A DNA stretch of 64,000 nt from Heterodontus francisci (Eukaryota), in the NCBI RefSeq assembly GCF_036365525.1, contig NC_090403.1, forward strand, positions 26,235,461 through 26,299,460, in the 5' to 3' direction. The position numbers and the translations under genes were made by a program. The first letter of the stretch is position 1, and the number at the start of each line of letters is the position of its first letter. The notes below the pieces were generated by a model, which worked only from the letters and a program-made list of their open reading frames with translations, did not search any database and was not told the origin of the DNA. Positions 4,691 to 37,343 of this stretch are shown piece by piece.

Positions 4691-4694
4691 GAAG

Positions 4695-12002: not shown

Positions 12003-12101
12003 TTAGTTTCTTCTGCTGATTCGTGCCGTTATTAAAAGGATCTGTTGTAAACGGGCTCTGGTCTCAGTGCGGATTATTTCCCAGGCACAGTTACTGAATC
12101 T
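12003..12101 (-). CDS. IFN1: Type I IFN gene A exon 4 (RFSNCAWEIIRTETRARLQQILLITARISRRN*)
   Basis: Acceptor tttcag at 12102-12107, CAWE motif, TAA stop at 12003-12005. Confidence 0.92.
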   Translation of the reverse strand, partial: RFSNCAWEIIRTETRARLQQILLITARISRRN

Positions 12102-12209
12102 CTGAAAAGGAGAAATATTCAGGAAAAGCAATTAGAAAATGAACGGATTTAAATGGGGTGAAATAAATTACATGTCAGTAATCACATAGTCAAATGTCAA
12201 TTATCCCAC

Positions 12210-12449
12210 CTTCTGTTTGAGAAACTTTCTCAGTTTCCTAAAGTATTGGTGAATGGCAGCGTTTCTCCTCAGCCTGGACTCTGATCCCGGTTTCCAGACA
12301 CATTCTTTCAGCTCTCCGAGCTGCCGATCCAGGAGAAGACGAAAGTTTTCCACCTTGTCCCGGGGCCATGTGACTGAGGCCAGGTTCATGCTGTAGATCT
12401 TGCTGATGTGACGCAGAGTTTGATAGACAATCCGGATCCCGTCCTGGGC
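12210..12449 (-). CDS. IFN1: Type I IFN gene A exon 3 (80 aa, AQDGIRIVYQTL...YFRKLRKFLKQK)
   Basis: Within ORF 12201..12464. cag acceptor, gtggga donor. W...KVENF, QL.EL.EC and YF..L..FL patterns typical of type I IFN. Confidence 0.93.
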
Positions 12450-12562
12450 CTGTGCACAATACATACAATGACATTAGAAGGGGCCTGATTCCATTTAACC
12501 AGCCCGGGATGGGGCAAATTTCATAGCCAATCAATCACTGCTGCTAATGAGAAACTGACTAT

Positions 12563-13390
12563 TTACATAGCATCAATGAAGTTGTTGTGCCTCTGCAATT
12601 GATCATTATATTGCCCGATTTCAATAACAAGACTGTTCTTGCTTAGTGGGTCAGGCTTGCACTGATACAAGCTATACAGTCCAACAGGCACTGAAAAAAA
12701 ATAAAATCCCATGGGATCCAGGGAAATGCAGCAAGGTGGATACAAAATTGGCTCAGTGGCAGGAACCAAAGGGCAATTGTTGACGGTGTTTTTGCGACTG
12801 GAGGGCTGTTTCCAATGGCGTTCCGCAGGGCTCAATACTGGGCCCCTTGCTTTTTGTGGTATATATTAACGATTTGGATGTAAATGTATAGAGCATGATC
12901 AAAAACTTTGCAGATGACACAAAGATTGGCCATATGGTAGATAGTGAGGAGGATAGCTGTAGACTGCAGGAAAATATTTATGGTCTGGTCAGATGGGCAG
13001 AAAGGGAAGTGTGAAGTGATGTGTTTGGTAGAGGAGGAACCCTCACAACATTTAAGAAGTATTTAGATGAGCACTTGAAATGCCATAGCATACAAGGCTA
13101 CGGGCCAAGTGGTGGGAAATGGGATTCGAATAGTTAGGTGCTTGAAGACCAGCACAGACATGATGGGCCAAAGGACCTGTTTCTGTGTTGTATAACTCTA
13201 TAACATTAGGTCAAACAGGGCACAGGAATACATGATTAATGGGAAAATACCGAGAAGTGTAGAGGAAGTGAGGGACTTTGGAGTGAATGTCCACAGACCC
13301 CTGAAGGTAGCAGGACAGGTCCTTAAGGTGGTTAAGAAGGCATATGGAATCCTTTCCTTTATTAGCCAAGTTATAGAATATAGGTATAGG
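12563..13390 (+). mobile_element. CR1 LINE fragments in intron 2 of gene A
   Basis: [10 protein letters not shown]-like and FADDTK-coding DNA at ~12815-12925, plus a 3' tail piece. Confidence 0.75.
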
Positions 13391-13716
13391 TATAGATATT
13401 TTAAAAAGAAAAGAGTTAACAAAGTGAACATTGGTCCTATAGAAAGTGAGTCTGGGAAATTATTAATGGATAATAAGGAGATAGCAGATGAATTGAACAG
13501 GTATTTTGCATCGGTCTTCAATATAGAGGATTCAAGTAACATCCCAGAATTAGTTGTAAATCAGGAAATGGAAAGGAGGGAAGAACTCAAGAAAATTACA
13601 ATCACCAGGGAAGTGGTACGGAATAGATTGTTGGGGCAGTGGGCTGAAAAGTCCCCGGGGCCTGATGGACTTCATCCTAGGGTCTTAAAAGAAGTGGCTA
13701 GTGAGATAGTTGATGC

Positions 13717-13940
13717 AAACAAGAAATACAGGAACCACTCAGCAGGTCTGGCAGCATCTGTGAAAAGAGAAGCAGAGTTAACGTTTCGGGTCAGTGAGCC
13801 TTCTTCGGAACTGTTCGGTCACTCACCCAAAACTTTAACTCTGCTTCTCTTTTAACAGATGCGGCCAGACCTGCTGAGTGGTTCCAGCATTTCTTGTTTT
13901 TATTTCAGATTTCCAGCATCCGCAGTATTTTGCTTTTATA
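13717..13940. mobile_element. Short inverted-repeat insertion (Penelope-terminus-like) with 15-bp duplication
   Basis: TGAGATAGTTGATGC at 13702-13716 and 13941-13955. The left ~80 bp is the reverse complement of the right arm. Confidence 0.75.
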
Positions 13941-14858
13941 TGAGATAGTTGATGCGTTAATTTTAATTTTCCAAAATTCCCTAGATTCTGGGAAGGTTCC
14001 GCTAGACTGGAAAATAGTGAATGTAACTCCTTTATTCAAAAAGGGAGGGAGACAGAAAGCAGTAAACTACAAGCCAGTTAGTGTAATATTTGTCGTAGGG
14101 AAAATGTTAGAAGCTATTATTAAAGATGTTATAGCAGGGCACTTAGAAAAATTGAAGTTAATCAGGCAGAGTAAACATGGTTTTGTTTAAGGGAAATCAT
14201 GTTTACCCAATTTATTGGAGTTCTTTGAGGGGGTTACTTGTGCTGTGGATAAAGGGGAACCAGTGGATGTATTGTACTTAGATTTCCAGAAGGCATTTGA
14301 TAAGGTGTCACATCAAAGATTATTGCAAAAAATAAAAGCTCATGGTGTAGTGGATAACATATTGGCATGGATAGAAGATTGACTAGTTAACAGGAAACAG
14401 AGAGTAGGCATAAATGGGTCATTTTCTGGTTGGCAAGATGTAATGAATAGTGTGCCACATGGATCTGTGCTGGGCCTCAACTTTTTACAATTTATATAAG
14501 TAACTTAGATGAAGGGACCGAGGGTATGGTTGCTAAATTTGCCGATGACACAAAGCTAGGTAGGAAAGCAGGTTGTGAAGAGGACATAGGAGGCTACAAA
14601 GGGATATAGATAGGTTAAGTGAGTGGGCAAAAATCTGGCAGATGGAGTATAATTTTGGAAAATGTGAAGTTGCCCATTTTGGCAGGAAGAATAAGAAAGA
14701 AGCATGATATCTAAATGGTGAGAGATTGCGGAGCTCTGAGATGCAGAGGGATCTGGGTGTCCTAGTGCATGAATTGCAAAAGGTTAGTATACAGGGACAG
14801 CATGTAATTAGGAAAGCTAATAATCATTTATCACAAAGGGAATTGAATACAAAAATAG

Positions 14859-14990
14859 AAGAAGGGTCACTGACCCAAAACGTTAACTCTGCTTCTCTTT
14901 TCACAGATGCTGCCAGACCTGCTGAGTGGTTCCAGCATTTCTTGTTTTTATTTCAGATTTCCAGCATCCACAGTATTTTGCTTTTATTAT
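14859..14990 (+). mobile_element. Short insertion of the same family with 12-bp duplication
   Basis: ATACAAAAATAG at 14847-14858 and 14991-15002. Confidence 0.75.
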
Positions 14991-15084
14991 ATACAAAAAT
15001 AGGTAGGTTATGCTTCAGCTATACAGGGCATTGGTGAGACCACATCTGGAGTATTGTGTACAGTATAGATTGCATTAGAGTCAT

Positions 15085-15408
15085 AGTGAGATACAGCACT
15101 GAAACAGGCCCTTCAGCCCACTGAGTCTGTACCAACCAACAACCACCCATTTATACTAATCCTACATTAATCCCATATTCCCTACCACATCCCCACCATT
15201 CTCCTACCACCTACCTACACTAGGGGCAATTTATAATGGCCAATTTACCTATCAACCTGCAAGTCTTTGGCTGTGGAAGGAAACTGGAGCACCTGGCAGA
15301 AACCAATGCAGTCACAGGGAGAACTTGCAAACTCTGTACAGTCAGTACCTAGAACTAAACCTGGGTCGCTGGAGCTGTAAGGTTGTGGTGCTAACCACTG
15401 TGCCGCCC
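15085..15408 (-). mobile_element. HE1/V-SINE-like SINE
   Basis: Homologous to 7862-8212 and 48536-48895. Confidence 0.8.
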
Positions 15409-15924
15409 TTATTTAAGGAAGGATGTAAATGCATTGGAAGCAGTTCAAAGAAGGTTTACTAGACTGATACCTGGAATGGGTGGGCTATCTTATGACGAAA
15501 GATTGGACAAGCTCGGCTTGTATCCGCTGGAATTTAGAAGAGTAGGAGGCGACTTGATTGAAACATATAAGATCCTGAGGAGTATTGACAGAGTGGATGT
15601 GGAAAGGATGTTTCCCCCTTGTGGGAGAATCTAGAACCAGGGGTCACTGTTTAATAATAAGGGGTCGCCCATTTAAGACAGAGATGAGGAGAAATGTTTT
15701 TCTCTCAGAGGGTGAGTGAGTCTTTGGAACTCTCTTCCTCAAAACGCAGTGGTAACAGAGTCTTTGAAGATGTTTAAGGCAGAGGTAGATAGGTTCTTGA
15801 TAAGCAAGAGGGTGAAAGGTTATCAGGGGAAGGTGGCAATGTGGAGAAATCAGTTCAGCCATGAACTTATTGAATGGAGGAGCAGGGCCGAGTGGCCTAT
15901 TCCTGCTCATAATTTGCATGTTCA

Positions 15925-16520
15925 TATATATGCTGGAACTGTACAAATCATTGGTTAGGCCACAGTACTGAGTACTGTGTGCAGTTCTGGTCACCACCTT
16001 ACAGAAAGGATGTAATTGCACTAGAGAGTGTAGAGAGGAGATTTATGGGGATGTTGCCGGGACTGGAAAAAATGCAGCTATGAGGAAAGATTGGATAGAC
16101 TTGGATTGTTCTCCTTGGAACAGAGAAGGCTGAGGGGAGATCTGATTGAAATGTACAAAATTTTGAGTGGCCTGGATAGAGTGGAGGTGAAGGGCCTATT
16201 TACCTTAGCAGAGAGGTCAGTGACTAGGGGGCATAGATTTAAAGTGATTGGTAGGAAGATCAGAGGGGAGATGAGGAAAAAGATTTTCACCCAGAGGGTG
16301 GGAGGAGACGGTCTGGAACTTACTGCCTGTAAGGGTAGTTGAGGCAGAAACCCTCAACTGATTCAAAAGAAGTCTAGATATGCACCTCAAGTGCTGTAAC
16401 CTGCAGGGCTGTGGACCAAATGCTGGAAGGTGGGATTAGACTAGGTGGATCGTTTTTCAGCTAGCATAGACACAATGGGCCAAGTGGCCTCTTCCTGTAC
16501 CGTAAAAATTCTGATTGTAT
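15925..16520 (+). mobile_element. CR1 LINE 3' fragment
   Basis: ORF 16091..16342 DRLGLFSLEQRRLRGDLIEMYKIL. Confidence 0.85.
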
Positions 16521-16629
16521 GAAGGTCTGCCACATAGTTTGAGGTCAAATAGTCTAAGACTACTTGCTGATGGCGAGCTCACACCCCATCTGGTCCAGTC
16601 CATGTACAGATCCAATTTGCCCCATAATT

Positions 16630-18910
16630 ACAACAACTTGCATTTATTTAGCGTCTTTAACTTCGTGCAATAGCTCAAGGAGGTTTACAGGAGTAGTATG
16701 AAAACATTTTTTACACCCAGCCATGAAAGGAGATTGTAGGACAGGTGACCAAAACCTTGCTCAAAGAGGTAATCTTTAAGGAGCAATTTAAAAGAGGAGA
16801 GAGAAGTAGAGAAGGTTAATTCCAGAACTTAAGGGCCAGGCATTGAAGGCACAGCCACCAATGGTAGAGCAATGAAAATTAGGGAAAATTGGAAGAGATC
16901 GCACAGGCTTGAAAGAAGTCACAGAAGAAGGAGGGAAAAGGCCATAGAGAGATTTTAAAACAAGCTTGAGAATTTTTAAAAATCGAAATATTGCTAGACT
17001 GGGAGCCAATGTAGATCTGCGAACACGGCGGGTGATGGTTGAAAGGGACTTGGGGCTACATTTTCATTTCACGGTCAGGAACCTGACATGGGCTGCATTT
17101 TAAAAGTCCGACGCTGAAATAGGTGACGGCCGGAAAACTTTGCGGCCCGCACACAGAGGGCCCATGTCGCAGAGCTGCCGCGATTCCAAACACGGTGGCT
17201 CATTAGCCTGACTGGGGCAGCCGCCCCCTAATGACATGGAGGGGGCAGGCGAGCCATCCCTGGCAACCCCGTCCAGTGCCAATGCACAGGCGCTGGTGTC
17301 ATTTTTAAAAGGCTTACAGCCCTAACTGATCATTTGAATTTTTAAAGACATCGTTAATGTAAAGTTTATAAAAATGAATAAACAAAAATTCCATACCCTC
17401 TTCCAACCCCCCAAGGGCATAACACATCATTTCTGCCCTCCCCCCACCCCCGAACACCTACCGTTAATATTTGACATTCCCCGCCCCAGGGAGTTCAGAA
17501 CCTTTATCCTTTACTCCTTCCCATCATCCCCCCAACCAATCCGAAGCATTTTAACCCTGATCCCACCTCCCGCACAGAGACAATCACTTCCTTCCCCCTA
17601 CCCACAGGTGTTGCGCCTCATTTCCCTGAACAGGGATTCGAAGGCATGGCATTGCCAGTCCCGTTGCTGAGTGGCGGAGCGGCTGCCACAAGGCCTCACC
17701 ACCACCGCCGGTATGGGGCCTGCTGGCATCGGGGTTGGTGGCAGGCCTCATCCGTTGCTATCTTCATTCCCCCCCACCAGCGTTCCTGGCATCGGATAGC
17801 CTTTAAAATCCAGCCCTGGGGCTAGTTTCAGCTCCTGACCCAGTATGGCATGGTCCAATCATGCCCACTGGTATTTTTAAAGGTTCAGCCAATTAAAGGC
17901 CAGGGAGTGGGCTGGTCGTCCAATCAGGGATGGAAGGTAGGCCCCCAAGGCTGGGGAACCAATGGGAGGCCCTCCAGTACTCGCAGATTGGCAACCCCAC
18001 CAGCTGAGGTGGGAGTGCCAATCTGGACATGGAGAGGCCAGGTAAGTTTTTTTTGGTTTTTACAACAGCCACAGCTGCCTCGGCATGATTCTGGAGGGGC
18101 AACCCTTCCAGAGACAGCCAGTGACTGCAGCAGTGGCTCAATGACCGTTACAGATGTGGGAGTCCCTTGCGTGAACAATCATGGCCACTCCACCCGCCCC
18201 CAGCTTCCTGTCTTCAACCCAACACATTGGACTGGATGCAGTACAGGCCAATGAGGGCTGATCATATTTCCAACTGGAAATCCCAGTTGGCGTAGGAATG
18301 GGGCCTTAAGAGGCCCCTTAATTAAATCAATTTCCAGTTAATTGACTACCCACCGCTTGCTGGCAGTCAGCCGATTTGACCCCAACACAGCCTCTTTGAA
18401 AATGTCTTGGGTCAGGATCATGACGGGGAACCAGCATGACGGCTGGCGGTGCCAAATTATGGGCCTTCCTGCATCCAATCCGGACCCTGGCCTTGAATGA
18501 AGGTCCTGTCCTTGGTGTCAGTTAGGATATTTGGATATGGTCAATTTGGAATATATTGCAGCAGATACTTGGGTGAGCACAAGTTTACAGAGGGTTCATG
18601 GTGGGAGGCCTACCTGGAGAGTATTGGAATAATCAAGTCCAGTGGTAACAAATGCATGATTGAGAGTTTCAGGATTAGATGAGCTGTGGCAAGGACGGAG
18701 ATGGATGATGTTATGAAGGTTGAAGCAGGCAGACTTGGTGATGGGGTTGGAAGCTCACCTCATGGTCAAATAGGAGGCCAATGTGGTGAATATTCTGGCT
18801 CAGTCTCAGACATTGGCTCAGAACAGTTTTGAAGCTGGTGGCTAGGGAATGGAGTTAAAGGCAGTGACTGAAAGCAATGGCTTTGGTCTTCCCAATATTT
18901 ATTTAATTGC
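16630..18910 (-). mobile_element. Degraded L2-like LINE 3' end, split by GC-rich insertions (17052-18495)
   Basis: FKILKLVLKSLYGL-like reading near 16950. L2-like DNA resumes after ~18500. Confidence 0.45.
17052..17816. mobile_element. Possible non-autonomous DNA transposon (GC-rich, imperfect TIRs)
   Basis: GGGCTACATTTT at the left end and AAAATCCAGCCC at the right end. Abrupt GC and CpG rise. Confidence 0.4.
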
Positions 18911-19486
18911 CAATTAGTCAATTGTACCATGGCAGTGCACATCCCAAATTGAAAATAGTGGTACAGCAGCGGCCATAGAGTAGAGGCAAAGAAAAGTGGA
19001 AGTGTAAATTGTGTGGAACCCGTGGGAGAAAGGTGCCAGCTTGAATTGAATGGGAAGACTGGTGGTGTGAACTGGAGATAACTGTTAAGGAGTGAGATGA
19101 TTAGAGGAACAGAGATGGTTATGGGGAGTAAGATGGTTAGGGGGGCAGCGGGTGAGATGATCTGCTGGTGTGAGTAACTTTTGGAGGGTGCTGAAGATGT
19201 AGCAGATGCCTCTTTAAAGAGTGCATTACACTTCACTGAGATTCCACTCCATGGTTCAGATTTAGGGACCCAGGAAGTAAACCTCTCTCCAGGAATCTTA
19301 CACTATGCACCCTGACTTAGAATGGGACCTGACTCTTAGTTCTACTGACATTTTCACATCAATCATTGACCAACATTGGGATTAAATTTCCTGATTTTTA
19401 ATTTCTGGCAAGATTGTTGATCTTAACCATACTTTCAATAAACCTCCTGTTTCAATAGATTAAAATAAATCCCAGCATTCACTCAC

Positions 19487-19576
19487 CTGTAAACCCCGCG
19501 ACAGCTTCACCAGGTTCAATGGCTTGGTTTTCAGCGCGACCCTCTCTCTTACACACTGTCGGGGTATGCGACCACC
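19487..19576 (-). CDS. IFN1: Type I IFN gene A exon 2 (GGRIPRQCVRERVALKTKPLNLVKLSRGLQ)
   Basis: Acceptor tttttctctcag, donor gtgagt, 90 nt, GG..P..C pattern, second conserved Cys. Confidence 0.92.
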
Positions 19577-19750
19577 CTGAGAGAAAAAACAATCACTGTT
19601 ACAGAATACACAGAAACTGAGATAGGGGAGAATCACTGAATATTAATTTAATAATGTTGCAAAACCGAAAACTATTTCTCTGACATAACTTTTCAAAACA
19701 AACCGGCCCTGTGTGATTCAGATGCAGCTCTGAATGCAGGTTGCAGTCAC

Positions 19751-19783
19751 CATTTCATTCAGTTTGCTCTGTGCCTCTGCGTT
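19751..19783 (-). pseudogene. Relic of a second IFN exon 1 3' end (NAEAQSKLNEM) within intron 1 of gene A
   Basis: Matches NTETLSKLNEM of exon 1, is followed by donor-like GTGACT, and lies 174 nt from exon 2. Confidence 0.75.
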
Positions 19784-20226
19784 TCGGATTACAATTCCCC
19801 TCAAAGCTGATTGCCCTTTGACTCAAATTTGATCCAAGCTCGCTGCAGATTCAGTGACTTCCTCTACCCTCAGAGTGATTCCTTCCTCTCCTCAGTACCA
19901 CATTCCCCTCTTTTTTGAGTATCACTTTCCTGAAAACTCATAGCCCGATCCCACTCTCTGTATCTGATTCCTCAGAGTTTGATACCCCTGTTACACTGGG
20001 GGTCTCGCTAGTCTTAGTTTCAGGAGAATTTTGTTGTTGGATAACGCAAAGAGTAACTGAAGAGAAGTGCCCTGGTAATAAATACGCCCTGGTAAATAAT
20101 GGAGAATCAGTGCCTATTAATTGGGTGAAATTGCAAGCACCCAAACTATTTCACCTGATAACGACTTTTCACGACAAACAGACCCCATGTGGTTCCAAAC
20201 CAGCTCTGAATACAGGTTAAACTCAC

Positions 20227-20358
20227 CATTTCATTCATTTTGCTCAGAGTCTCTGTGTTGAGAACTTGCTGCAACTGCAACCTCTCACAGCCCAGACACA
20301 GGGTCCCGGGCAACAAGACCAACACCATCCAAAATCTCCAAACACTGGGCAAAGCCAT
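20227..20358 (-). CDS. IFN1: Type I IFN gene A exon 1 (MALPSVWRFWMVLVLLPGTLCLG|CERLQLQQVLNTETLSKMNEM)
   Basis: ATG at 20358, hydrophobic signal peptide, donor gtgagt at 20221-20226. Confidence 0.93.
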
Positions 20359-20457
20359 CCCAACCGACCCAGAGTAAAACACTGATCTGAAGGATGAGCG
20401 ACCGACAGCTTTGTGGTTCAGCGCCCCAAACGCTTCTTTTTCACTGAATTAAACTCT

Positions 20458-20698
20458 GAAAGTGGAAATGCAGCCGATTCTGATCCAGGAGCGACCGTCT
20501 GTGTTGCTGAATGGTGTGAGAGTGCGGCTGGATTCTGCTGGGAGCTCTCACTGGCACTGCTATGCTGTCGGATTTAATGTATGGCATTACATTCGAAAAG
20601 TGAAAATATTCTGCAGGATTTTTGGAGTTTGTGCTATTTCTTGCTGATGTAAGGAATCGAAAAGCTGGAGAGTCCGAGGCAGCGACTGGAAAATCCCC
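20458..20698 (-). promoter_or_regulatory. Proximal promoter of gene A: IRF-type motifs and NF-kB site
   Basis: GAAAGTGGAAA 20458-20468, GAAAAGTGAAA 20595-20605, GGGGATTTTCC (minus) 20688-20698. Confidence 0.6.
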
Positions 20699-20740
20699 GT
20701 TAGAAAATCACAACCAGTGCTCGATTCCAACTCATTGTTG

Positions 20741-21341
20741 TAATGGAGGGATACAGCACAGAAACAGGCCCTTCGGTCCATCGTGTCGTTGCCAACCATC
20801 AAGCACCTAACTATTCGAATCCCATTTTCCAGCACTTGGCCCGTAGCCTTGTATGCTATGGCGTTTCAAGTGCTCATCTAAATACTTAAATGTTGTGAGG
20901 GTTCCTGCCTCTACCACCTCTTCAGGCAGTGTGTTCCAGACTCCAACAATCCTCTGAGTGAAAACATTTCCCCTCAAATCGCCTCTAAACCTCCTGCCCC
21001 ATACCTTAAATCTATGCCCCCTGATTATTGAGCCCTCCACTAAGGGAAAAAGTTTCTTCCTATTTAATCTATCAATACCCCTCATAATCTTGAATACCTC
21101 AAACACGTCCCCCCTCAGCCTTCTCTGCTCTAAGGAAAACAACCCTAGCCTTTTCAGTCTCTCTTCATAGCTGAAATGCTCCAGCCCAGGCAACATCCCA
21201 GTGAATCTCCTCTGCACCCTCTCCAATGCAATCACATCCTTCCTATGGTGTGTTGCCAAGAACTGTACACAGTACTCCAGCTGTGGCCGAACTAGCATTT
21301 GGTACAGCTCCATCATAAACTCCCTGCTCTTACATTCTATG
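20741..21341 (-). mobile_element. CR1 3' fragment unique to the gene A upstream region
   Basis: Open CR1 frame LVRPQLEYCVQF...GYGPSAGKWD. Absent at the matching site upstream of B, C and D. Confidence 0.9.
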
Positions 21342-21779
21342 AGTGCGTTCGGATCACCGGGGCATGAAGGTGGTGCAGAGGGAGAGTCTGTATTGGGGGG
21401 AGTGTGAACATGTATTGGGGGCTGTATTTTATAATCCGGTTTATAGAGACACCGACAGCGGTAATCCGGTGCCGCGGCTTTTAATGCTGACATTCGGCTC
21501 CAGAAAGAGCGATTCCCTTTTAAATCCACTCTCTCCCCGGTGTGCTCACATCGCGCTTTTCCTGTTCACAGTTCGCAGGTTGGACATTGCAGAGATCCCG
21601 GGTCACAGCCCAGGGTCACCGCTTGATGCCGAATGTCACCGCTCGGATTCACCTGTCGAAGAATCTGCTCATGAAGTGGAAGAAGTTTGTCATTTCTGGG
21701 CTCATTTCTGCGGTCATTTTCAGAGTTTATTTGAAAGAAAATTTAATCTGCTTCGACTCTGAGTCCCAAAGTGATCCCG

Positions 21780-22030
21780 CTCCCTTTTCTTTCATCATTT
21801 CTTTCTTGTCTCCCTCCCGGGAAAGTGTCCGTGTCAGTTTCTCTGTGGAAATGAACCTTGTGTCAATTACATCGAAAGTGAAAGTGCCTCAGGGAAAGTG
21901 ACGAGTTTTGTCATTTCCGAAAGGGAGGAGAGTTTGTAAACAGAGCGGGTCACACTGAGAGGGCTGAGGGGGAGCTGCAACAGGGTTTGGGATATCCGGG
22001 ATATCCCCGATTCCAAAGGGAATGTCACAA
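21780..22030. promoter_or_regulatory. Distal IRF/NF-kB motif cluster upstream of gene A
   Basis: GAAAGTGAAAGTG 21874-21886, further GAAAGTG/GAAATG hexamers, tandem GGGATATCCGGGATATCCCC 21989-22008. Confidence 0.65.
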
Positions 22031-23089
22031 AATCAATCTCATCTGAAACTGTGATCAAAAACTTCCGTCCGGGTGGATGTGGGACTGAGATCCCACGAGC
22101 ACCAGCTTGAGACGGGAGAAAAACTGCAATTTAGAATAATGCTGATGGTAACAGGATAATGGTGAATAAAACTGTAGGAATTGTAAATAGTTTCGAATGG
22201 AGGCGGAAGGAGGGTTCGGGAATTTAAGGAGGAATGTTTAAAACACTGGTGGGTAACATAAAAGGAAGTAGCAAGGACTCTTAGCAGCACGTCCATTATA
22301 ATCTTACTCCGTGCCTTTATCATTCTGCATAATTGGACTTCCTAATGTCAACATCTTGTCACCCCATTGGGGTAGAGATTCCGCTTTGTAGGAATTCATG
22401 GGGAGAGCAAATAGATGGGTTTGTCCCCAATTTTGCCTCATTGCGCTCCGAACGAAATTGTATGTTTTGAGATCTTGTTCTCGAGTTTCCGCTCAAATTC
22501 GTTTGCCAATCCCCAAACGCAAAATCTGCCATGAACCAACAAATCGGTCAGGGATTTCAAATGTAGTTTTAATAAAACTGCCTTAAAATGTTCGATTAGA
22601 TATTTAAGAGTGGAAACAGTTGCAGTTTGATTCATACAGCAGAAAATGGATTTATCACAAAACGTAAGCATTTTAAATGACACTATCAATCCTGCACCTG
22701 TGAGATTTTAAATGACCGAAATTGGCATTTTAAAATATATAGGCCCATTTGTTAGTTTTATTTGGGTGCAATAGTCATTTTCTTCGCAAAGTAAACTTGC
22801 CGAATCTTGTCCTTATTGCCCAAATGAAGCACTTTAAGATTTGGATCCTCCGGAGAGGCCTGCAATTACAATGGTGATTAATTTATCCTGGCAATAAAGC
22901 CACTATTTTGGCACAACCAGCTTCCAGTGCAATCTTTTTTGTGAACTGGCGTTGAGAGTGGAAACTCAATTTGCCCTGGACGTAATTTGCAGGTAACAGC
23001 GGTCAATCTTTCACAGTTATTTCACTGACTTTGGGCAAGTTGCACTGAGAAAACCAGGACAAATAGTCATGTGGTAAGTACAGAACTTG

Positions 23090-24228
23090 TGAACTGCTGA
23101 AAATAGAGACATATTGTGGAAGCTTTTGTTCTTGCACTCATCAGGACAACAGGCAAGAATAACCAATGTAAGGGGAAACAACAACTTATTCTGTATGAGA
23201 ACAGAGTGCTGATTGGTTGGCAAGTGAAATCTGATTGGTAGAGGCTTTGCCATGGAGCATGCACCAGTTTATGGTGACTGACAGTTCACTGTCAAGCTTT
23301 GTTTGAAATTTAAACCAGGCAGCTTGACTGTGGTTGTTCAAGGCATTTCTCTGAGGAATGAACCAGCAAATGGCTGAAACAGCGGCAATGCGTGTACATG
23401 TTCATTCTGTGTGCAACGAACAGAACCCTGTGTAATAAGATATGTAGCTTCCAGTACACACAAATGCGCCACACTGTGAGCCCGACTGACAATCTTCAAT
23501 TAGTTGTCAGTGTAATTCTTAGCACACTGCGGATTATTTAGCAAATGTTGTCCAATTGCAGAATCACATCTAATGTTGGACTCTGTGTTCTGAGTTTTGC
23601 AACCAAGCGCTGGTTGGTTACGTCCTGTCCGTTGCCTGCTGCAAACAGTGGAAGGGACATGTTGTTTGATACAATTCACCAGTCTTTGGGATATACAGCC
23701 TAAATACTTAGCATCACACTGGCATTGAAATTCATACATCACACAACTCACTTGTGTGATAGGTAGGATGATGTTTGCCTTCACAGCAGCATCAGGTTAG
23801 TGGTGAACACCACTGCATAGCGAACTTTACCTGTTGATCAATGTTTTGGGATACATTACCTCCAGGGTAATTTGAGGTAGACTGGGCATTTCTCATGGCC
23901 ACAAATGATGGCCTTACGCACGTTTCTCTGTTTCCGTGATTTCCAGTGAGAAATGATCTGATCAGGGTCACCAATGTCACACAGGATTTCATTGATTCAC
24001 CCTATTTCAGCATCAAGCTTGCATGGTGAGCAAATGGCTCGGGCCCTATTTACGAGGTTGACCATGAAGTCAATCTTATAGCGCGTGGAACTGTAGGAAT
24101 CCCAATGCGTGTATTGAACAATGAAGTATAAGATGTTGTTTTCCCTTACATTGGTTATTCCTGCGTGTTGTCCTGATGAGTGCAAAATGAAAAGCTTCGA
24201 CAACATATCTCTATTTTAAGCAATTCTC
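23090..24228 (-). mobile_element. Penelope-like element relic (GIY-YIG endonuclease, RT C-terminus, inverted ~100-bp termini)
   Basis: YEFQCQCDAKYLG...QRL...IKQH and SAIGQHL in ORF 23500..23784, NLVNRARAICS. 23090-23190 is an inverted match to 24125-24228. Confidence 0.85.
24166..24205 (+). ncRNA. Minimal type I hammerhead ribozyme motif (Penelope-type)
   Basis: TGTTGTC-CTGATGA-GTGCAAAAT-GAA-AAGCTT-C-GACAACA. 7-bp helix I, intact core, palindromic helix III. Confidence 0.7.
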
Positions 24229-25713
24229 GAAAACTAGGACAAGCGAGTGGAAAGTCCTGTTTGCTTTTTGTTAATTCTAAATTCCTATCCACCATTTATT
24301 TTGAGACTTGCATTATAAAATTGATGGTCTGAGTGCATAAAGGAAGGCACTTCAGATGAAAAGAGGTAGAAATTATGATGTTATTTCGTGGGTGGGAGAC
24401 AGAGGAATGAATAGAGGTTCTATGGAATGTTCGGGATGCAAAGTGGCAATAAACTGAACCATTTGGTCGCTGCGTAAAAGATAATGGGAGATTGACTAAC
24501 AATTTAGGTGAAGCTGTTTGTCAGCATTTATCATTGTAAATTGCTATGTCAGCATTTGAAATCCAATTTTGACATGGCAACTGCCAAACTGCCATGATAT
24601 AATTGCAGCCTTTGGTCATAAGGTTGCTCTTTCCATATCTTCCTATTATTCGCTTGGAGAGAATAATGCGAACGAATGGGAGGATTTGCAGGATTTTTAA
24701 CAGTCTGACAAATGGTGTCTTGAGCATTCCTTCCATGGCCATAAACATACCAATTGACAGATTGATCAGTCCAAGACAACAGGAGAGTATTATAGGCTCT
24801 CATAAACCATGCGGAGTATGGGGAATCCATTGGGTACATGTGCCCACGTGGATGTCAACCCAGAATTCAGAACCAGAATTTGGATCCTCCGTTGAGACAC
24901 TCTGGGACATCCCATCCTCTGACCCGAGGCAGTAATCATAATACTAAGCCAAAGGTTCACTCCAGGCCCTGGCGTGATCCTGTGGAATAAGTCCCTGAAG
25001 TTTTCCAACATGCATAGAAAAAACGTATTGATCAATTGACTGTGGACAAAGCCAGGGGAAATGTATTAATAAGAAATGAGAGGATAGTCAGTGAAGGGCT
25101 GTGTGCACTTGTGGATGAATGAAGACTTGTGTTTGAACAAATGGTAGAAATATTGAGATGAATACACAAAAGCAAGGATGAAGTGCATATCAGTGGACCA
25201 AAGGGAAGGGAGGATAAAAACAAGTAAGTGTGAATGACAGTAGAAAATACACCAGGTCCAGATCATATGCAGTCTAAGAAACTATGAAATAAGGTCAATG
25301 AGAGAAAGAACAAATCATAATTTTCCTATCAACTTCAGAAACAAGTATTGTGCCAAAGGATTGCAGGGTGGCAAGATATTAGACTTAATTCAGCTGTATG
25401 TAACTCTATGGAGTCCATAGTATGGGGTGAAATAATTGAGAAGTCGGAGAAGCATGAGGGACAGTCAACACGAATCTGTAAATAATAACAATGAGAAAAG
25501 AGTGGAAAATCAGGAAAATTGGGTTTGAAATGGATTGACAGCTTTGAGCAGTGAGGGAAAATCAGACAGCAGAGAGAGGAGACTTGAGCAGAGATTGTAT
25601 CAGTAATAGACAGCAAGGAGGAAAATCCAGAGCATTTATAGTGAGTATGGAAAACTGATCAACACAAATGAGAAATAGATATTATTCTTGTAAATGTGAA
25701 TTATTGAAAACAA

Positions 25714-26303
25714 TTTATTCACACCAACATATGTTCATTCAGTATAAAAGATTTCCAGTTTACAAAAACATTGTCTATCCCACAACTCTTAATAAATATC
25801 AATAAGTTAATTTTTAAACTCACTTTACACATTGTATAACACTGTAACATTTCATTATGTGAACAAATCACAACAATAAATATCAATGAATTAGGATAAA
25901 TTGAGATGGATTGTAGTTTGGGCTGTTTGGAGAGCAGAATTGTCAAGGTCAGTGTAACTCAGGGTTCATTGATCTGCAACCCGACACTCTTGAAAGCCCA
26001 ACAGTGCATTCAAAACCAGACTCCCCACAATGAGCCCTTTCGCATTTCATCACAGGAAATTATCACAGCAATAAATATAAATAAATTAAAATAAATAAGT
26101 AAATATGAAACAATATTAAGCCAGTCATTCTTCTCTATCGGTCATTTTGCTGCCAATGGCATCATTACAGCAATCCAATTACATTAAAATATTAAATAAA
26201 ATAAATACTGTTAAATAAAATATATGTAGTTATACATTTAAGGCATTTAAAATAAATATTTATTTTTTTCCAGTCTGTACTAAAACATGTCTTTGGAAAG
26301 TCT
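25714..26303 (-). promoter_or_regulatory. 3' UTR of gene B with ATTTA-rich instability elements and AATAAA (25714-25719)
   Basis: Dense TAAAT on the plus strand at 26070-26260. Same layout in C and D. Confidence 0.65.
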
Positions 26304-26402
26304 TCAGCTTCTTCTTCTGATTTTTGCTGTTATAACAAGGATCTGTTGTAAACAGGCTCTGGTCTCAGTGCGGATTATTTCCCAGGCACAGTCACTGAAT
26401 AT
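26304..26402 (-). CDS. IFN1: Type I IFN gene B exon 4 (IFSDCAWEIIRTETRACLQQILVITAKIRRRS*)
   Basis: Acceptor ccttcag, CAWE motif, TGA stop. Confidence 0.92.
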   Translation of the reverse strand: MFSDCAWEIIRTETRACLQQILVITAKIRRRS

Positions 26403-26509
26403 CTGAAGGAAGGAAATATTCGGGAAAATCCATTAGAGAATCAATAGATTTAAATGGGGAGAAATGAACTACATGCTAGTAATTACACAGAAAATACCAA
26501 TTGTCCCAC

Positions 26510-26749
26510 CTTCTGTTTGAGAAACTTTTCCAGTTTCCTGAAGTATTTGTGAATGGCAGTCTTGCTCCTGGGCTTGAACTCTGATCCCAATTTCCAGACA
26601 CATTCTTCCAGCTCTCCGAGTTGCCGATCGAGGAGAAGACGAAAGTTTTCCACCTTGTCTCGGGGCCATGTGACTGAGCCCAGGTTCATGCTGTAGATCT
26701 TGTTGATGTGACGCAGGGTTTGATGGACAATCTGGATCCTGTCCTGGGC
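26510..26749 (-). CDS. IFN1: Type I IFN gene B exon 3 (80 aa)
   Basis: AQDRIQIVHQTL...YFRKLEKFLKQK with canonical splice sites. Confidence 0.93.
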
Positions 26750-26949
26750 CTGTGCACAATAGACACAATGACATTAGAGGGGGTCTTATACCTTTTCGGT
26801 TTAAAGTAGTTATGGAAAGGAACAAGGAATAGGTCAACAGTAAATAAGCAACGGGAGGCTTTAATAGTGAAGACATCTTGGGTACAGATTGGGTTCATTC
26901 CTATGAAGCAGAAAGTAAGGACATGCAAAAATTCATGCTTCGTGGATAT

Positions 26950-27960
26950 AGAGATTGAATAGATAGTGAAAAGGAAGGCTTATCATAAATATTAGGCTCA
27001 TAATAACGTGGGGAACGAAGCTGAATATAGACAGTACAGAGAAGAACTATCAAAGAAATGAGGGGCAGAGTGCATAAAAAATCGACTAGCTGCAAACAAA
27101 AAAGGGAAGCTACAAATCTTTTATAAGCATGTAAAGGGAAAGAAGGGTTAGTAATTAGTGGCCGAAAAGCAATTTTCTTCTGGTGCAGGGGGTACAGCTG
27201 AGGATCTAAACGATTAATTTGCACGTGACTTCACTAAATAGGATGGTTCAAATATCACAGTAAAGTTGGGTGTTTGGCAGAGGTGGGGGTAGAAGAAAAA
27301 TTGGATCGGGTGAAAATAGATACAGAGGAGGTGCTTAAAAGATTGGTAGCACTCGAAGTAGGAAAGTCACCCAGTCTGGATAGAATATTTCTGAGGTTGC
27401 TGAGGAAAGTCAGTGCTTAAATAATGGAAGTTCTGGCCACAATTTTCCAGTCCTCATTGGATGTGAGAGTGATGCCAAAGGACTGAAAGTTTTCACCCTG
27501 TTCAAAAAAGGAGGTAAACTTGACAACCACAGGCTAGTTAGGCTATCATGGGTGGCGGGAAGTTTGTAGACACTATTTTTCCAAGGTAAAATGAGTTGTC
27601 ACTTACCAAAATATGACTTAGTAAATGTCAACCAGTAAATATTTGTTAAGGTAAAATCATGCTTGCCTAACTTGATTGAGTTATTCGATCAAGTAGCAGA
27701 AAGGATTGCTGAGGGAGGTGTGGTGATTGTTGTTTATATAGATTTTCGAAATGTCTGTATACGGATTTGCTGAATGGGTGGTGAAAAAGATCAATAATTG
27801 GTTTGAAAGGGAAATTATATAAATAGTTGAAGAGGAAAGGTTTGCATGGTTATTGGAAAATGGTGAGTGGAGTGGGAATAATTGGATAATTCATTCAAAG
27901 AGCCTGCACAAGCATGATGAGCCACATGGCCTATTCTGTACCTTTCAATGATTCCATGAC
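26950..27960 (+). mobile_element. Old degraded CR1 LINE in intron 2 of B (also ~37790-38795 and ~51290-52290)
   Basis: KSPSLDRIFLRLLRKV...LATIFQSS...PKD-like RT N-terminus and a CR1 tail. Confidence 0.7.
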
Positions 27961-28169
27961 GTAACCTGCCCTGATGGTGCAAACCACACATCCAATCATT
28001 GTTGCACAGGAGTGAGATGGTGAGAGGAAGGCAGATTGTTACATTGTGTAAGATGAATGGGTGAGTTTAGATAATTAGAGGAAGTGAGATGATGAGAAGC
28101 AAGGTAATTTGACAAGATTCATGGTTAACATAGATGGAGGGTGTGAAATGATTAAAAGAATGATTAGGG

Positions 28170-31100
28170 GACACTGGCGTACTGGTAATGTTACTTGAAT
28201 ACTAATTCAGACGCCAGGAAAAAGCTCTGGGAACATGAGTCCAAATCCCACCATTGCGGCTGGTGGAAATTAAATATAATTATTAAATCTGCAGTTAAAA
28301 GCTAGTCTCATTTATGGTTACCATGAAACTAATGGATTGTCATTAAAAACACATCTATTTCATCAATGCCCAATCTACTGTCCTTACCTGGTCTGGCCTA
28401 TATGTGACTCCAGACCCGACTCTGAAAGGGCCTAGCAAGCCAGTCAATTGTATCAAACCACTGTAGAAAAGTTGAATAAGAATAAAACTGGACAGATTGA
28501 CCACAGCACCAGAAATGACAATGGCAGACCCTGACCAGTCAACCCTGCAAAATCCTCCTTCCTATTATCTGGGGAACTGTGCCAAAATAAAGAGAGCTGT
28601 CCCACAGATTACACAAGTATTGGCCTGGCAGAGTCATACTCACTGAATTAAAACCATACAGCCATTGTCCCAGACTACTCCATCATCATCGCAGTGGGAC
28701 AAGATATACCCACCAGAGTTAGTTGCACAGTAGTAAACAGTCGGGAGGGAGTGTCCTCAACATTGACGCCAGACCCCATGGATTCTCACACCATCAGGCC
28801 AAACATGGGCAAGGAAATCACCTGCTGATTACCACCTAGTACCTCCCTCAGACAATCAAACTTGCTCTGCCACACAATAAGATCATGGCTGATCCGATTG
28901 TGACATTAACTCCACTTTTCTCCCTAAACCACCACCACCCCCATATCTCTTGACTCCCTTGTAGATCAAAAATCTGTCCAACTCAGCCTTGAATATGTTT
29001 GGTGAATCACCCACCACTGCTCTCTGGGGAAGAGAATTCCAAATATTAAAGACCCTCTGAAAGAAGAAAGACCTCCTCGTCTCCATTTTAAAAAGAGACT
29101 CCTTATTTTAAAATTGTGCCCCCTTGTTCCAGATTAATCCACGAGGAAAAACATCCTGTCAGCATCTACACTGTCAAGCCCCCTCAGAATATTATATGTT
29201 TTAATAAGATCACCTCTCATTCTTCTAAACTCCAATGAGTATAGACCCAACCTCCTCAACTTTTCCGCATAAGACAACCCTTTCATCCTAGGAATCAGCC
29301 TAGAGAGCTTTTGCTGAGCTGCTTCCAATGCATGTATATTCCTCAGATGATGAATCAATACTCCTTCATGTTTAACACCACTTTGAGGAAGCAGTGTTGG
29401 TAGTAATGGCACAGAATGAACTCTTGGTGGAGAACTTCAATGCCCATCACCAAGAGTGGCTCAGTAGCAGCACTACTGACCGAGCTGGTCCAGTCCTGAT
29501 GGATGTAACATCCAGACTGGGCCTGCAGCAAGTGGTGATGATCCAGGAAAAAGGAAATTTGCCTGACATCGCCCTCACCAATCAACCTGTTGCAGATGCA
29601 TCTGTCCATGACAGTATTGGTCGGAGTGAGTACCACATAGTCCTTATGGAGGTGATGTCCTGTTTTCACTCTGAGGATACTGTCCATTGTGTGCAATGGC
29701 ACTACCACGGTGCTAAATGGGATACATTCAGGACAGATCTAGCAGCTTAAAACTGGGCATCCATGAGGCACTGTGAGTCATCAGCAGCAGCAGAATTGTA
29801 TTCAATCGCACTCTGTAACTGCATGGCCTGGCATATCCCTCACTCTACCATTAGCATCAAGCCAAAGGATCAAACCTGGTTCAATGAGGAGTTTAAGAGA
29901 GCAAGCCAGGAGCAGCACCAAGGATATCTAAAAATGAGATATCAACCTGGTGAAGCTACAACACAGGACTACATGCATGTTAAACAGCGGAAGCAGCATG
30001 CCATAGAGCTAAGAGATCCCACACGAATAGAGCAGATCAAAGCTCTGCAGCCCTGCCACATCACGATGTGTATGGTGCTGGACAATTAAACAAATAACAG
30101 CAGGAAAAGGCTCCACAAACATCCCCAGTGTCAATGTTGGGGGAGCCCAGAACATTAGTGCAGAAGACAAGGCTAAAGTATTTGCATCCATCTTGGCCTC
30201 CTCGTGAGGACCCCAGCATCATAGATGCAAATCTTCAACCAATTCAATTCACTCCACGTGATATCAAGAAATGGCTGAAGGGACAGGATACAGCAAAGGC
30301 TATAGGGCCTGACAACATCCTGGCAGTAGAACTGAAGATTTGTTCTCCAGAATAAGCTGCACTCTTAGCCAAGCTATTCCACTACAGCTACAACACTGGG
30401 ATCTACCCAACAATGCAGAAAATTGCCCAGGTGTGTCATGTGCACAAAAGACAGGACAAATCCAATCTGGCCAATTTCCATCTCATCAGTCTGCTCTCGA
30501 TCATCAGCAAAGTGCTGGAGGGTGCTATCAACAGTTCTATCAAGTGGCACTTACACAGCAATAACCTGTTCACTGATGCTCAGTTTGGGTTCCACCAGGG
30601 CCATTCAGCTCCAGACCTCATTACAGCCTTGGTCCAAACAAGGACAAAGGAGCTGAATTCAAGTGGTAAGATGAGACTGACTGCCTTGACATCAAGGCAG
30701 CATTTGACTGAGTGTGGCATCAAAGAGCCCTAGCAAAATTGAAGTCAATGGGAATCAGGGGGAAAACGCTTCATTGATTGGAGTCATACCTAGAACAAAT
30801 GAAGATGGTTGTGGTTGTTGACAGCCAAACATCGAAGCTCCAGGACATCGCTGCAGGAGTTTCACAGGTTAGTGTCCCAGACCTAACCATCTTCAGCTGC
30901 TTCATCAATTACATTCCCACCATCAGAAGCTCAGAAGTGGGAATGTTCACTGATGACTTTTTTCAGTACCAACCGTGACTCCTCAGGTACTCAACAGTGC
31001 ATCTCCACTTGCAGCTGGACCTGAACAACATTCAGGCTTGGGCTGATAAGTGACAAATAACATTCATGACCACAAGTGCCAAGCAATGACCATCTCCAAC

Positions 31101-31640
31101 AAGGGAGAATCCAACCATCTCCACTTGATATTCAACAACATTACCATCACTGAATATCCCACTATCAACATCCTGAGGGTTATCATTGACCAGAAACTTA
31201 ACAGGACCAGTCATGTAAATACTGTGGCAACAAGAGCAGCTCAGAGGCTGGTAATTCTGAGGGAGTAATTCACCTCCTGACTCCCCAATGCCAGTCCACC
31301 ACCTACAAGGCACAAGTCAGGAATGTGATGGAATACTCTCCACTTGCCTGGATGAGTGCAGCTCCAACAACACTCAAGATGCTCGACACCATCCAGGATG
31401 AAGCAGCCCAATTGATTGACACCTGATCCAACACCTTCAACATTCTCTCCCTCCACCAGCATTGCAGTGTGTAACTTGTACAAGATGCACTGCAGCAACT
31501 CACCAAGAATTCTTCGACAGCACTTTCCAAAGCTGCAACCTCTACCACAGCAGCTGCTTGGCAACACTATCACCTGCGTGTTCCCCTCCAAGCTACAAAC
31601 CATCCTGACTTGGGAGTATATCGCCGTTCCTCCACTGTTA
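28170..31640 (+). mobile_element. Degenerate near-full-length LINE (AP endonuclease + RT) in intron 2 of B, antisense to the IFN gene
   Basis: NFNAHHQEW, KAIGPDNI, ISLLSIISKVLE, QFGF..GHSAPD, MFTDD. Multiple stops and frameshifts. Confidence 0.85.
28870..29343 (-). mobile_element. CR1 3' fragment nested in the intronic LINE (also ~39700-40170 and ~53200-53665)
   Basis: LRRLGLYSLEFRRMRGDLI, FFFQRVFNIWNSLP. Confidence 0.85.
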
Positions 31641-31847
31641 GAATTAAGGAGAAAGTAAGTGCTGTCATTGTGAGTGATATAGTTAGTGAGTGAATGACTG
31701 AGTAGTTCTGCTGTCCTTCTCACACCAATGGGCGGAAAACACTGGATTTAAATTTCCTGGTGTTGAAATTTCTGATCAGGTTGATGATCTTACTCATACT
31801 GTCAATAAAACTCCAGTTCGAATAAAATAAACCCAGTGTTCACTCAC

Positions 31848-31937
31848 CTCGAATCCCTTCGAAAGTTTCATCAGGTTCAAGGGCTTGGTTTTCAGTGAGA
31901 GCCTCTGTTTTACACAGCGTCGAGGAAAGGGACCGCC
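31848..31937 (-). CDS. IFN1: Type I IFN gene B exon 2 (GGPFPRRCVKQRLSLKTKPLNLMKLSKGFE)
   Basis: 90 nt, ctcag acceptor, gtgagt donor. Confidence 0.92.
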
Positions 31938-32112
31938 CTGAGAGGAGATAACAATCACTGTTACAATCAGCCCCAGAAACTGAAATACTACAGAATCACT
32001 GACTATTAATTAGCAAAATTATAAACTGCAAACTATTTCTCCTGAAATGGGTTTGCACAACAAACAAACCCTGTGTGGTCCGGTTATGGTTCTGAATGTG
32101 TTTTAAACTCAC

Positions 32113-32244
32113 CATTTCATTCAGTTTGCTCAGAGTCTCTGTGTTGAGAACTTGCTGTAACTGCAACCTCTCACAGCCCAGACTCAGGGTCCCGGGCAAC
32201 AAGACCAACACCATCCAAAATCTCCAAACACTGGGCAAAGCCAT
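32113..32244 (-). CDS. IFN1: Type I IFN gene B exon 1 (44 aa, signal peptide)
   Basis: ATG at 32244, gtgagt donor. Lies within ORF 31996..32313. Confidence 0.93.
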
Positions 32245-32342
32245 CCCAAGCGACCCAGAGTAAAACACTGATCTGAAGGATGAGTAACCGACGGCTTCGT
32301 GGTTCAGCGCCAAAACGCTTCTTGTTCACTGACTTAAACTGT

Positions 32343-33300
32343 GAAAGTGGAATTGCAGCCGATTCTGATCCAGGAGCGACCGTCTGTGTTGCTGAATGGT
32401 GTGAGAGTGCGGCTGGATTCTGCTGGGAACTCTCACTGGCACTGCCATGCTGTCGGATTTAATGTGTGGGATTACATTCGAAAAGTGAAAATATTCTGCA
32501 GGATTTTTGGAGTTTGTGCTATTTCTTTCTGATGTAAGGAATCGAAAAGCTGGAGAGTCCAAAGGCAGCAACTGGAAAATCCCCGGTAGAAAAACATTGA
32601 ACCAGCTCTCGATTCCAGTTCAACGTTGTGTGGGTTCAGATCACCGGGGCATGAAGGGAGAGTCTGTATTGGGGGGAGTGTGAACATGTATTGGGGCTGT
32701 ATTTTATAATCCGGGTTTAGAGAGACACTGACAGCGGTAATCCGGTGCCGCGGCTTTTAATGCTGACATTCGGCTCCAGAAAGAGCGATTCCCTTTTAAA
32801 TCCATTCTCTCCCCGGTGTGCTCACATCGCGCTTTTACTGTTCACACTTCGCAGGTTGGACATTGCAGAGATCCCGGGTCACAGCCCAGGGTCACCGCTT
32901 GATGCCGAATGTCACCGCTCGGATTCACCTGTCGGAGAATCTGCTCTTTAAGTGGAAGAAGTTTGTCATTTCTGGGCTCTTTTCTGCGGTCATTTTCAGA
33001 GTTTGTTTGAAAGAAAATTTAATCTGCTTCGACTCTGAGTCCCAAAGTGATCCCGCTCCCTTTTCCTTCATCATTTCTTTCTTGTCTCCCTCCCGGGAAA
33101 GTGTCCGTGTCAGTTTCTCTGTGGAAATGAACCTTGTGTCAATTACATCGAAAGTGAAAGTGTCTCAGGGAAAGTGACGAGTTTTGTCATTTCCGAAAGG
33201 GAGGACAGTTTGTAAACAGAGCGGGTCACACTGAGAGGGCTGAGGGGGAGCTGCAACAGGGTTTGGGATATCCGGGATATCCCCGATTACAAAGGGAATG
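32343..33300 (-). promoter_or_regulatory. Promoter/enhancer of gene B (IRF and NF-kB motifs, TATAAAA at 32702-32708)
   Basis: GAAAGTGAAAGTG 33150-33162, GGGATATCCGGGATATCCCC 33265-33284, proximal GGAAAATCCCC. Confidence 0.6.
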
Positions 33301-37236: not shown

Positions 37237-37343
37237 CTGAAGGAAGGAAATATTCGGGAAAATCCATTAGAGAATCAATAGATTTAAATGGGGTGAAATG
37301 AACTACATGCTAGTAATTACACAGAAAATACCAATTGTCCCAC

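Follow-up and report, generated by a model that had tools for sequence, protein, structure and literature searches.

A mosaic terminal gene in an array of intron-containing type I interferons in Heterodontus francisci

Introduction

The available portion of PMC5332411 describes the 4C form of type I interferon, the intron-containing type I interferons of cartilaginous fish (four exons and three introns, with intron 3 lost) and three tandem genes in the elephant shark. Recognised subfamilies include the IFN-f-like genes and a lineage that is sister to the amniote genes (PMC6640115, available portion). In mammals, exchange between paralogues and recent block duplication have been reported for the IFNA/IFNW clusters (excerpts of PMC3244034 and PMC2680415), and the locus studied here resembles these clusters in both respects. 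However, the mammalian IFNA/IFNW genes are intronless, whereas in the present locus an exon donor marks the boundary, which parts promoter and exon 1 from the gene body and belongs to a block of more than 11 kb.

Hybrid genes are known to arise by unequal crossing-over in other tandem families, such as haemoglobin Lepore and anti-Lepore, glycophorin and the CYP11B1/B2 hybrids. In each of them a 5′ regulatory part and a 3′ body that come from different paralogues are joined with the frame intact, and the deletion and duplication products mirror each other. The gene described here, gene A, shows the same join of 5′ regulatory part and 3′ body, and the mirror-image products raise the same question of direction. 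Unlike the Lepore-type hybrids, the product seems to be fixed in the assembly and to have been followed by further amplification, and A has an older internal layer.

We analysed one stretch of 64,000 nt (the window). A search by title or abstract opening, which lacked most subscription papers and is not proof of absence, found no mosaic shark interferon gene.

Results

Four interferon genes

The window holds four related genes, A to D, on the minus strand. The exon models of A (with differences from B) and of B are:

12003-12101, minus strand: exon 4 of A, stop included (11/99 nt differ)
12210-12449, minus strand: exon 3 of A, 240 nt, the fused exon of the four-exon layout (23/240 nt differ)
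19487-19576, minus strand: exon 2 of A, also in two sequencing contigs (21/90 nt differ)
20227-20358, minus strand: exon 1 of A, of the shared type, encoding a putative signal peptide and the start of the mature chain (3/132 nt differ)
26304-26402, minus strand: exon 4 of B
26510-26749, minus strand: exon 3 of B
31848-31937, minus strand: exon 2 of B
32113-32244, minus strand: exon 1 of B

Genes C and D have the same exon models as B. Each of the four has an open frame of 186 aa in exons of 132, 90, 240 and 99 nt with GT/AG introns, and the frame is intact across the exon 1 junction of A. The canonical intron 3 is absent, leaving the four exons and three introns of cartilaginous-fish type I interferons; one contig of run X5 (the RNA status of this run is a guess) joins a B-type exon 2 to exon 3. 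Exon 3 of B, the one exon covered by the scan, matches PF00143 with 42.1 bits against a curated cut-off of 26.8 (E 1.3e-10), the sole family listed. Cysteines at 24, 52, 124 and 159 in all four genes give the four-cysteine pattern of the type I interferon mature chain, and the translations begin with a hydrophobic stretch, by eye a putative signal peptide. Judged by sequence, A to D are four-exon type I interferons of the cartilaginous-fish layout, which they share in their four coding exons, phase-0 GT/AG introns, long third exon, conserved cysteines and tandem clustering. The elephant shark has three tandem genes (PMC5332411, available portion), whereas here at least four lie in units of 11-16 kb and the terminal gene is mosaic.

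A and B are identical at 151/186 aa. Recomputed from the gene models, the differences are exactly those first reported from reading the sequence: 2/44 aa in exon 1, with the three nucleotides given above, and 33 of 142 aa in exons 2-4 (11 + 15 + 7), exon 3 being identical at 65/80 aa. A diverged body thus stands behind a common exon 1 and promoter, as the original prediction had it; its "different IFN subtype" is a label for the 151/186 identity.

An abrupt identity step in intron 1

The fall in identity that had been placed at the exon 1 donor (~20220) was located by window identity and a max-chi scan:

20216-20217, no strand: identity step, 10 nt inside intron 1, the left edge of the tandem array

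A and B are identical in 490/517 columns in 20217-20735 and in 84/120 in 20094-20216 (Fisher p 5e-13). In the max-chi scan the break falls after 20216 and 0/2000 permutations reach its score, over 1435 and over 925 aligned columns alike, and the switch is abrupt and in register.

That no exchange took place, and that exon 1 and the promoter owe their similarity only to a constraint stronger than that on the rest, has a probability close to negligible. The contrast at synonymous sites alone (1/27.7 in exon 1, 17/95.8 in exons 2-4) is not significant (p 0.07), and A falls outside B-D on both sides of the step, as constraint would allow. However, protein constraint is not the cause of the step, because non-coding DNA changes likewise: on the body side the intron-1 copies and the 3′ UTR (177/242 identical) show a divergence of 26-28% between A and B, and on the promoter side it is 7% (proximal) and 2% (distal). 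The kilobases of intergenic DNA that are 97-98% identical effectively refute this explanation. Exon 1 also does diverge between old paralogues, since over 117 nt of it a further paralogue in the contigs shows 13 differing letters and 9 gap letters, with unlike flanks.

Incongruent trees had been expected on the two sides of 20220. The branch lengths do change, but A lies outside B-D both in the tree of exon 1 and proximal promoter and in that of exons 3-4, which goes part of the way to the congruence that would speak against the original prediction; four-gene trees are unable to test topology, because there is a single lineage outside the array. When a decayed copy inside intron 1 of A (see below) serves as the third sequence, A sides with B at 9/10 two-against-one sites in the exon tail and the first 10 intron nt, against 14/46 in the rest of intron 1 (p 0.0008). 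This supports a switch, in a test that is biased because the remnant was free to decay.

The array and its upstream tiers

Upstream of exon 1 of A the window contains:

20359-20741, minus strand: proximal promoter common to A and B-D, the older tier (26/382 differ from B)
20742-21342, no strand: A-only interspersed repeat insertion of 601 nt (alignment; 15 other matches in the window)
21343-32112, minus strand: rest of repeat unit 1, with distal upstream, B 3′ flank and B body (36/1846 differ from unit 2 in 21343-23200)
32113-42939, minus strand: repeat unit 2, starting at exon 1 of B
42940-58593, minus strand: repeat unit 3
58594-64000 (window end), minus strand: repeat unit 4 (window comparison); units 2-4 span exon 1 of B, genes C and D, and flanking DNA of a probable further copy

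In the proximal promoter we take motifs at 20458 and 20595 to be IRF-like and one at 20697 to be NF-kB-like, from a scan with consensus patterns and no chance control.

The repeat unit comprises exon 1, its upstream region and the body of the next gene, so the step at 20216/20217 is the left edge of the array. The colinear upstream similarity had been given as about 6 kb. It is as high as claimed, but it neither ends at 26000 nor runs uninterrupted: the 601-nt insertion breaks it, and it continues at 93-99% per 500 nt through gene B to 32112. For the ~6 kb block we found no bounded short conversion tract, the similarity reaching the next exon-1 donor at 32112. Of the breakpoint proposed at the exon 1/intron 1 junction, the recombination boundary stands; conversion of the whole block does not, as the window contains no right-hand end and homology running through B exceeds the 1-3 kb limit for conversion (PMC2680415, excerpt).

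The upstream region is two-tiered against B-D, with the proximal 0.5 kb about 7% and the distal part about 2% diverged, and the change lies near the 601-nt insertion (p 5e-8). These two age tiers would suit a gene conversion of only ~0.5 kb, in which a B-type copy supplied exon 1 and the proximal promoter; a separate, later crossover near the insertion would then have made the distal upstream similar. A 525-nt tract fits the range quoted in the excerpt of PMC2680415, and conversion among human type I interferons is documented in that of PMC3244034. Even so we consider this very unlikely: it needs two events instead of one crossover with edge isolation and ordinary homogenisation, and no pre-conversion upstream of A is left in the window to mark a right-hand end.

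Sequencing contigs

The stretch 19300-20800 was contained in 4 of the 12 runs listed, from one sample and one study, with no RNA run among them. One contig in each of the DNA runs X1 and X2 (a single sample) reproduces the structure of A: over 1398 nt it contains A exon 2 and a remnant of a second exon 1, which 433 letters separate from the exon-1 tail, and its gaps of 163 and 433 letters equal the distances in the window. As the query was the stretch of B, support for the A junction comes from the pieces that match exon 2, the remnant and exon 1, and from the number of letters separating these pieces. In run X8 (second sample, raw reads) 8 reads matched, none at the A junction.

It might be suspected that the assembly was misjoined where a collapsed repeat ends, as the B-type contig is about seven times as deep as that of A (50.4 vs 7.2-7.5) and the runs may come from the source sample. 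However, in each of the two runs a single contig spans A exon 2 to the exon-1 tail, and exon 1 and promoter of A are no copy of B-D, because they carry 23 private sites in 514 columns; the chance of a misjoin is negligible. The same depth ratio suggests that the array is probably longer than assembled here.

Identity alone gives no direction: the repeat unit begins at this junction, and B-D taking the 5′ end of A would yield the same pattern. We lean slightly towards A as the recipient of a B-type 5′ end by in-register unequal crossover. The reason is that a B-type intron joined to another exon 1 was not found in the contigs. In X1 and X2 the B-type contig is unbroken from intron 2 through intron 1 to the shared exon 1, and at 80% likeness no B-type intron 1 leads to another exon 1 among the listed pieces or nine loose ends. 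The argument is one of absence, from one sample, in contigs that drop rare variants and after a filter that removes records; three pieces fell outside the listing. The claim that gene A is chimeric thus holds for the mosaic boundary, and that A is the chimera is where the contigs lean, by absence.

The opposite direction is possible, if somewhat unlikely: A would have kept its own exon 1 and promoter, and an unequal crossover with an ancestral B at the exon-1 donor would have duplicated A exon 1, A upstream and B body, founding the array and making B-D the chimeras. A single event would account for both the boundary and the phase of the units. The deepest divergence within the array (130/1977, 6.6%) is about that between the A and B proximal promoters (26/382, 6.8%), which this direction predicts and which counts against A as recipient, as does the failure of A to nest within B-D in the tree of exon 1 and proximal promoter. 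The excess of A-private sites beside the edge (23/514 vs 33/3639) fits equally well. Yet under this direction the last gene should also have a foreign exon 1 on its B-type intron 1; the search of X1 and X2 described above found none, so that such a gene must have been lost, converted or filtered out.

Older layers inside gene A

The original prediction had missed the upstream tiers as well as the content of intron 1 of A, which at 650 nt holds two intron-1 copies and the decayed tail of a second exon 1. The introns of A contain:

12450-19486, minus strand: intron 2, 7037 nt, repeat-rich and mostly unrelated to intron 2 of B (alignment)
19577-19750, minus strand: inner complete intron-1 copy with its own GT donor, giving the exon 2 acceptor (127/172 to B intron 1)
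19751-19786, minus strand: decayed 3′ tail of a second exon 1 (30/36 columns equal the exon-1 tail of B; a separate piece in the contig comparison)
19787-20093, no strand: spacer that matches nothing else in the window significantly (one further hit, E 1.3)
20094-20216, minus strand: outer intron-1 stub lacking the last ~45 nt of the B-type intron (84/120 to B; with donor 95/131 to the inner copy)

The outer stub is neither of the B type nor of the inner-copy type. The reading of the spacer as a decayed exon 1 or promoter is not supported, since 169/500 shuffles reach its same-strand score against exon 1 and promoter of B and 35/500 its reverse-strand score. By eye, a gapped extension of the remnant to ~19807 has a gap of 8-9 nt near where the further paralogue lacks 9 letters, which is suggestive only.

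Intron 2 of A had been described as entirely different from that of B in its TE content. It is largely unrelated, but both ends align (40/47 and 112/144) and one faint colinear piece links 13482-13677 to 27195-27392 (E 0.009). The remaining A-B matches are to repeats of which the window has several copies. What had looked like an intron-2 relic at 4489-5012 proved to be a multi-copy repeat, as did a match at 13967-14477.

Discussion

The mosaic structure of A is real, and it is most probably an ordinary result of unequal crossing-over rather than a new kind of system. With A as recipient, the history might be as follows. A stands at the end of the tandem array of type I interferons with introns. 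In an unequal crossover with a B-type copy, in register and resolved within the short conserved stretch that surrounds the exon-1 donor (at 20217 or just upstream of it), the old intron 1 and exons 2-4 of A would have come to lie behind an exon 1 and promoter of the B type, together with the complete B-type intergenic unit. Later exchange among the array units may have held the distal upstream at about 2%, and the terminal 0.5 kb, isolated by the 601-nt insertion, may have drifted to about 7%. An earlier, separate event, either an internal duplication or a fusion with a neighbour, would have left the two intron-1 copies and the dead exon-1 tail. A would then be induced via the same IRF/NF-kB-type promoter and secreted via the same leader as B-D, with a different body from exons 2-4.

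It might even be imagined, although we think it rather unlikely, that the 5′ end of A was replaced twice: the inner exon-1 tail died, and later the B type took the place of the exon 1 that belonged to the outer stub. On this view exon 1 and promoter would form an exchangeable module in intron-containing interferon clusters, and the diverged body, put under the inducible promoter of the amplified family, would have been retained by selection. The leftover donor may also permit a 306-nt stop-containing cassette exon at 19751-20056 that tunes the output of A.

For practical work, a tree, subtype name or qPCR primer derived from exon 1 or from the whole protein will misplace A or fail to separate it from B-D. 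For the family, the locus provides a clean example of how, in interferon clusters with introns, regulation and the receptor-binding body can come apart at an exon boundary, a route closed to the intronless genes of mammals.

Results

Gene models place four tandem type I interferon genes (A to D) on the minus strand of the window, each intact, with four exons and 186 aa, and with A at the left edge of the array. We found a match to PF00143 (Pfam) above cut-off for exon 3 of B, the only exon scanned. Four exons with a single long third exon are shared with the type I interferons of cartilaginous fish, for which the consulted portion of PMC5332411 describes this layout. Judged by this feature alone, the source would be a cartilaginous fish. 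In the coding exons of B, C and D each pair shows 8 non-synonymous against 1-2 synonymous differences, counts too small for calling selection.

A had been predicted to carry a B-type exon 1 and promoter on a divergent gene body. The counts behind this prediction proved exact: exon 1 has 3 differences between A and B in 132 nt (2 in 44 aa), and exons 2-4 have 33 in 142 aa. The sharp fall in identity at the exon 1 donor was also recovered, with 490/517 identical positions in 20217-20735 versus 84/120 in 20094-20216. A max-chi scan sets the break after 20216, 10 nt inside A intron 1, with a score that 0 of 2000 permutations reached in each of two alignments. Non-coding sequence on the body side is 72-85% identical: 94/130 and 127/172 for two copies of intron 1 in A against that of B, 112/144 and 40/47 for the ends of intron 2, 87/105 for intron 3 and 177/242 for the 3' UTR. 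The 3' flanks stay colinear at about 70% as far as 8669, hence A and B are old duplicates. Exons 3-4 (12003-12449 versus 26304-26749) show about 9/73 synonymous differences versus 45/172 differences in intron 1 (p 0.018), a closeness that possibly reflects an older partial exchange or constraint.

Upstream of the step, sites private to the A unit occupy 23/514 columns in 20227-20741 versus 33/3639 beyond an A-only 601-nt insertion (p 5e-8; only columns filled in all four units, as far as 25480). A and B differ at 26/382 sites in the proximal promoter; in 21343-23200 they differ at 36/1846, against 37/1846 for B and C. In a scan with consensus motif patterns, run without chance control, A shows two IRF-like matches, about 100 and 237 nt above its start codon, and one NF-kB-like match at 339 nt, all common to B and C; D is without the second IRF-like match (~58960), which A, B and C have about 236 nt above the start.

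The shared upstream block had been traced as far as 26000. The similarity is there, but it runs on through the body of the next gene.

Repeat units, each delimited by consecutive exon-1 donors
20227-32112: repeat unit 1
32113-42939: repeat unit 2
42940-58593: repeat unit 3
58594-window end: repeat unit 4, incomplete, stopped by the window end

Each unit comprises exon 1, its upstream region and the 3' flank and body of the next gene, and therefore the array has its left edge at the step inside A. Units 1-4 align at 92-99% identity in well-aligned 500-nt bins; the last bins of unit 4 are misaligned. Since unit 4 closes with another 3' flank, and since contig depth is 50.4 for B-type sequence against 7.19 and 7.49 for A (about seven times, a depth and not a copy number), further copies probably lie beyond the window. 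One contig from run X5 (presumed RNA, a guess) splices B-type exon 2 to exon 3; its exon 3 start is one letter off B and C and fits neither A nor D, and we regard it as another copy or allele. Unit 3 alone contains a 1.6 kb element in two copies of opposite orientation (45955-47551 and 55383-56979, 95%). A relic of another interferon 3' UTR and downstream flank lies at 3593-4203 (309/426 identical to B's); no exons 3-4 were found beside it, and repeats follow from about 4377.

Intron 1 measures 650 nt in A versus 175 in B-D.

Layers of A intron 1, read from the working donor (minus strand)
Outer stub: directly after the donor of exon 1, homologous to the B intron over its first 130 nt
Spacer: 307 nt, after the stub, no significant match anywhere in the window
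Remnant: 36 nt, after the spacer, the decayed tail of an exon 1, carrying a GT of its own
Second intron-1 copy: complete, after the remnant, provides the acceptor of exon 2

The two copies and the B intron are about equidistant (95/131, 94/130, 127/172). Given the remnant and the complete second copy, A exon 2 once lay directly downstream of another exon 1. A exon 2, remnant and exon-1 tail share a single 1398-nt contig in each of two DNA runs of one sample, possibly the source (X1 and X2), with gaps of 163 and 433 letters that equal the window distances. Pairing a pyrimidine-rich spacer AG with the GT donor of the remnant would give an in-frame cassette of 306 nt (19751-20056) that contains several stops, judging from sequence a possible poison exon. 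A short palindromic, MITE-like repeat family occurs in A intron 2 (13717-13939 and 14858-14993) and at 1994-2114.

Exon 1 is not frozen by constraint, since that of a further paralogue outside the window, which has its own intron, differs at 13 letters and is gapped at 9 in a 117-nt comparison with 32105-32221. This exon is 9 nt shorter and has a 31-letter word in common with B in its leader-coding part; the paralogue's 5' end is probably unlike.

Discussion

The predicted chimera at exon 1/intron 1 holds as a mosaic boundary. The older layer in intron 1 had been missed: its arrangement implies that a duplication or fusion preceded the exchange. A deletion-type crossover at the step would make A the chimera; Lepore is an example of a hybrid gene from unequal crossing-over. 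We lean slightly towards A as the recipient, because the B-type contig passes without a break from intron 1 to the shared exon 1, and because none of the contig pieces or loose ends shown joins a B-type intron to another exon 1 (one sample, 3 pieces unshown), an argument from absence only. The same absence counts against a duplication-type crossover at this spot, which would make B-D the chimeras and found the array in one step; that the oldest within-array divergence (130/1977) is about the same as the A-B promoter divergence speaks for it, and we consider it the less probable direction. A short gene conversion followed by a later crossover seems improbable. Trees on the two sides of the breakpoint (exon 1 plus proximal promoter; exons 3-4) differ only in branch length, and A falls outside B-D in both. 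For this reason, and because synonymous sites alone give a contrast of p 0.07 between exon 1 and the rest of the coding sequence, we make no strong claim on direction.

Gene conversion occurs among human type I interferon genes, according to the consulted part of PMC3244034, and the relevant section of PMC2680415 weighs block duplication against conversion, with a conversion limit of 1-3 kb. Type I interferon genes undergo fast birth and death, with expansion in cartilaginous fish, as stated in the portion of PMC6640115 consulted. None of the titles and abstracts listed in a literature search dealt with this case. In conclusion, the mosaic boundary at the edge of this tandem interferon array is real and well-defined, and it was probably produced by a familiar mechanism.
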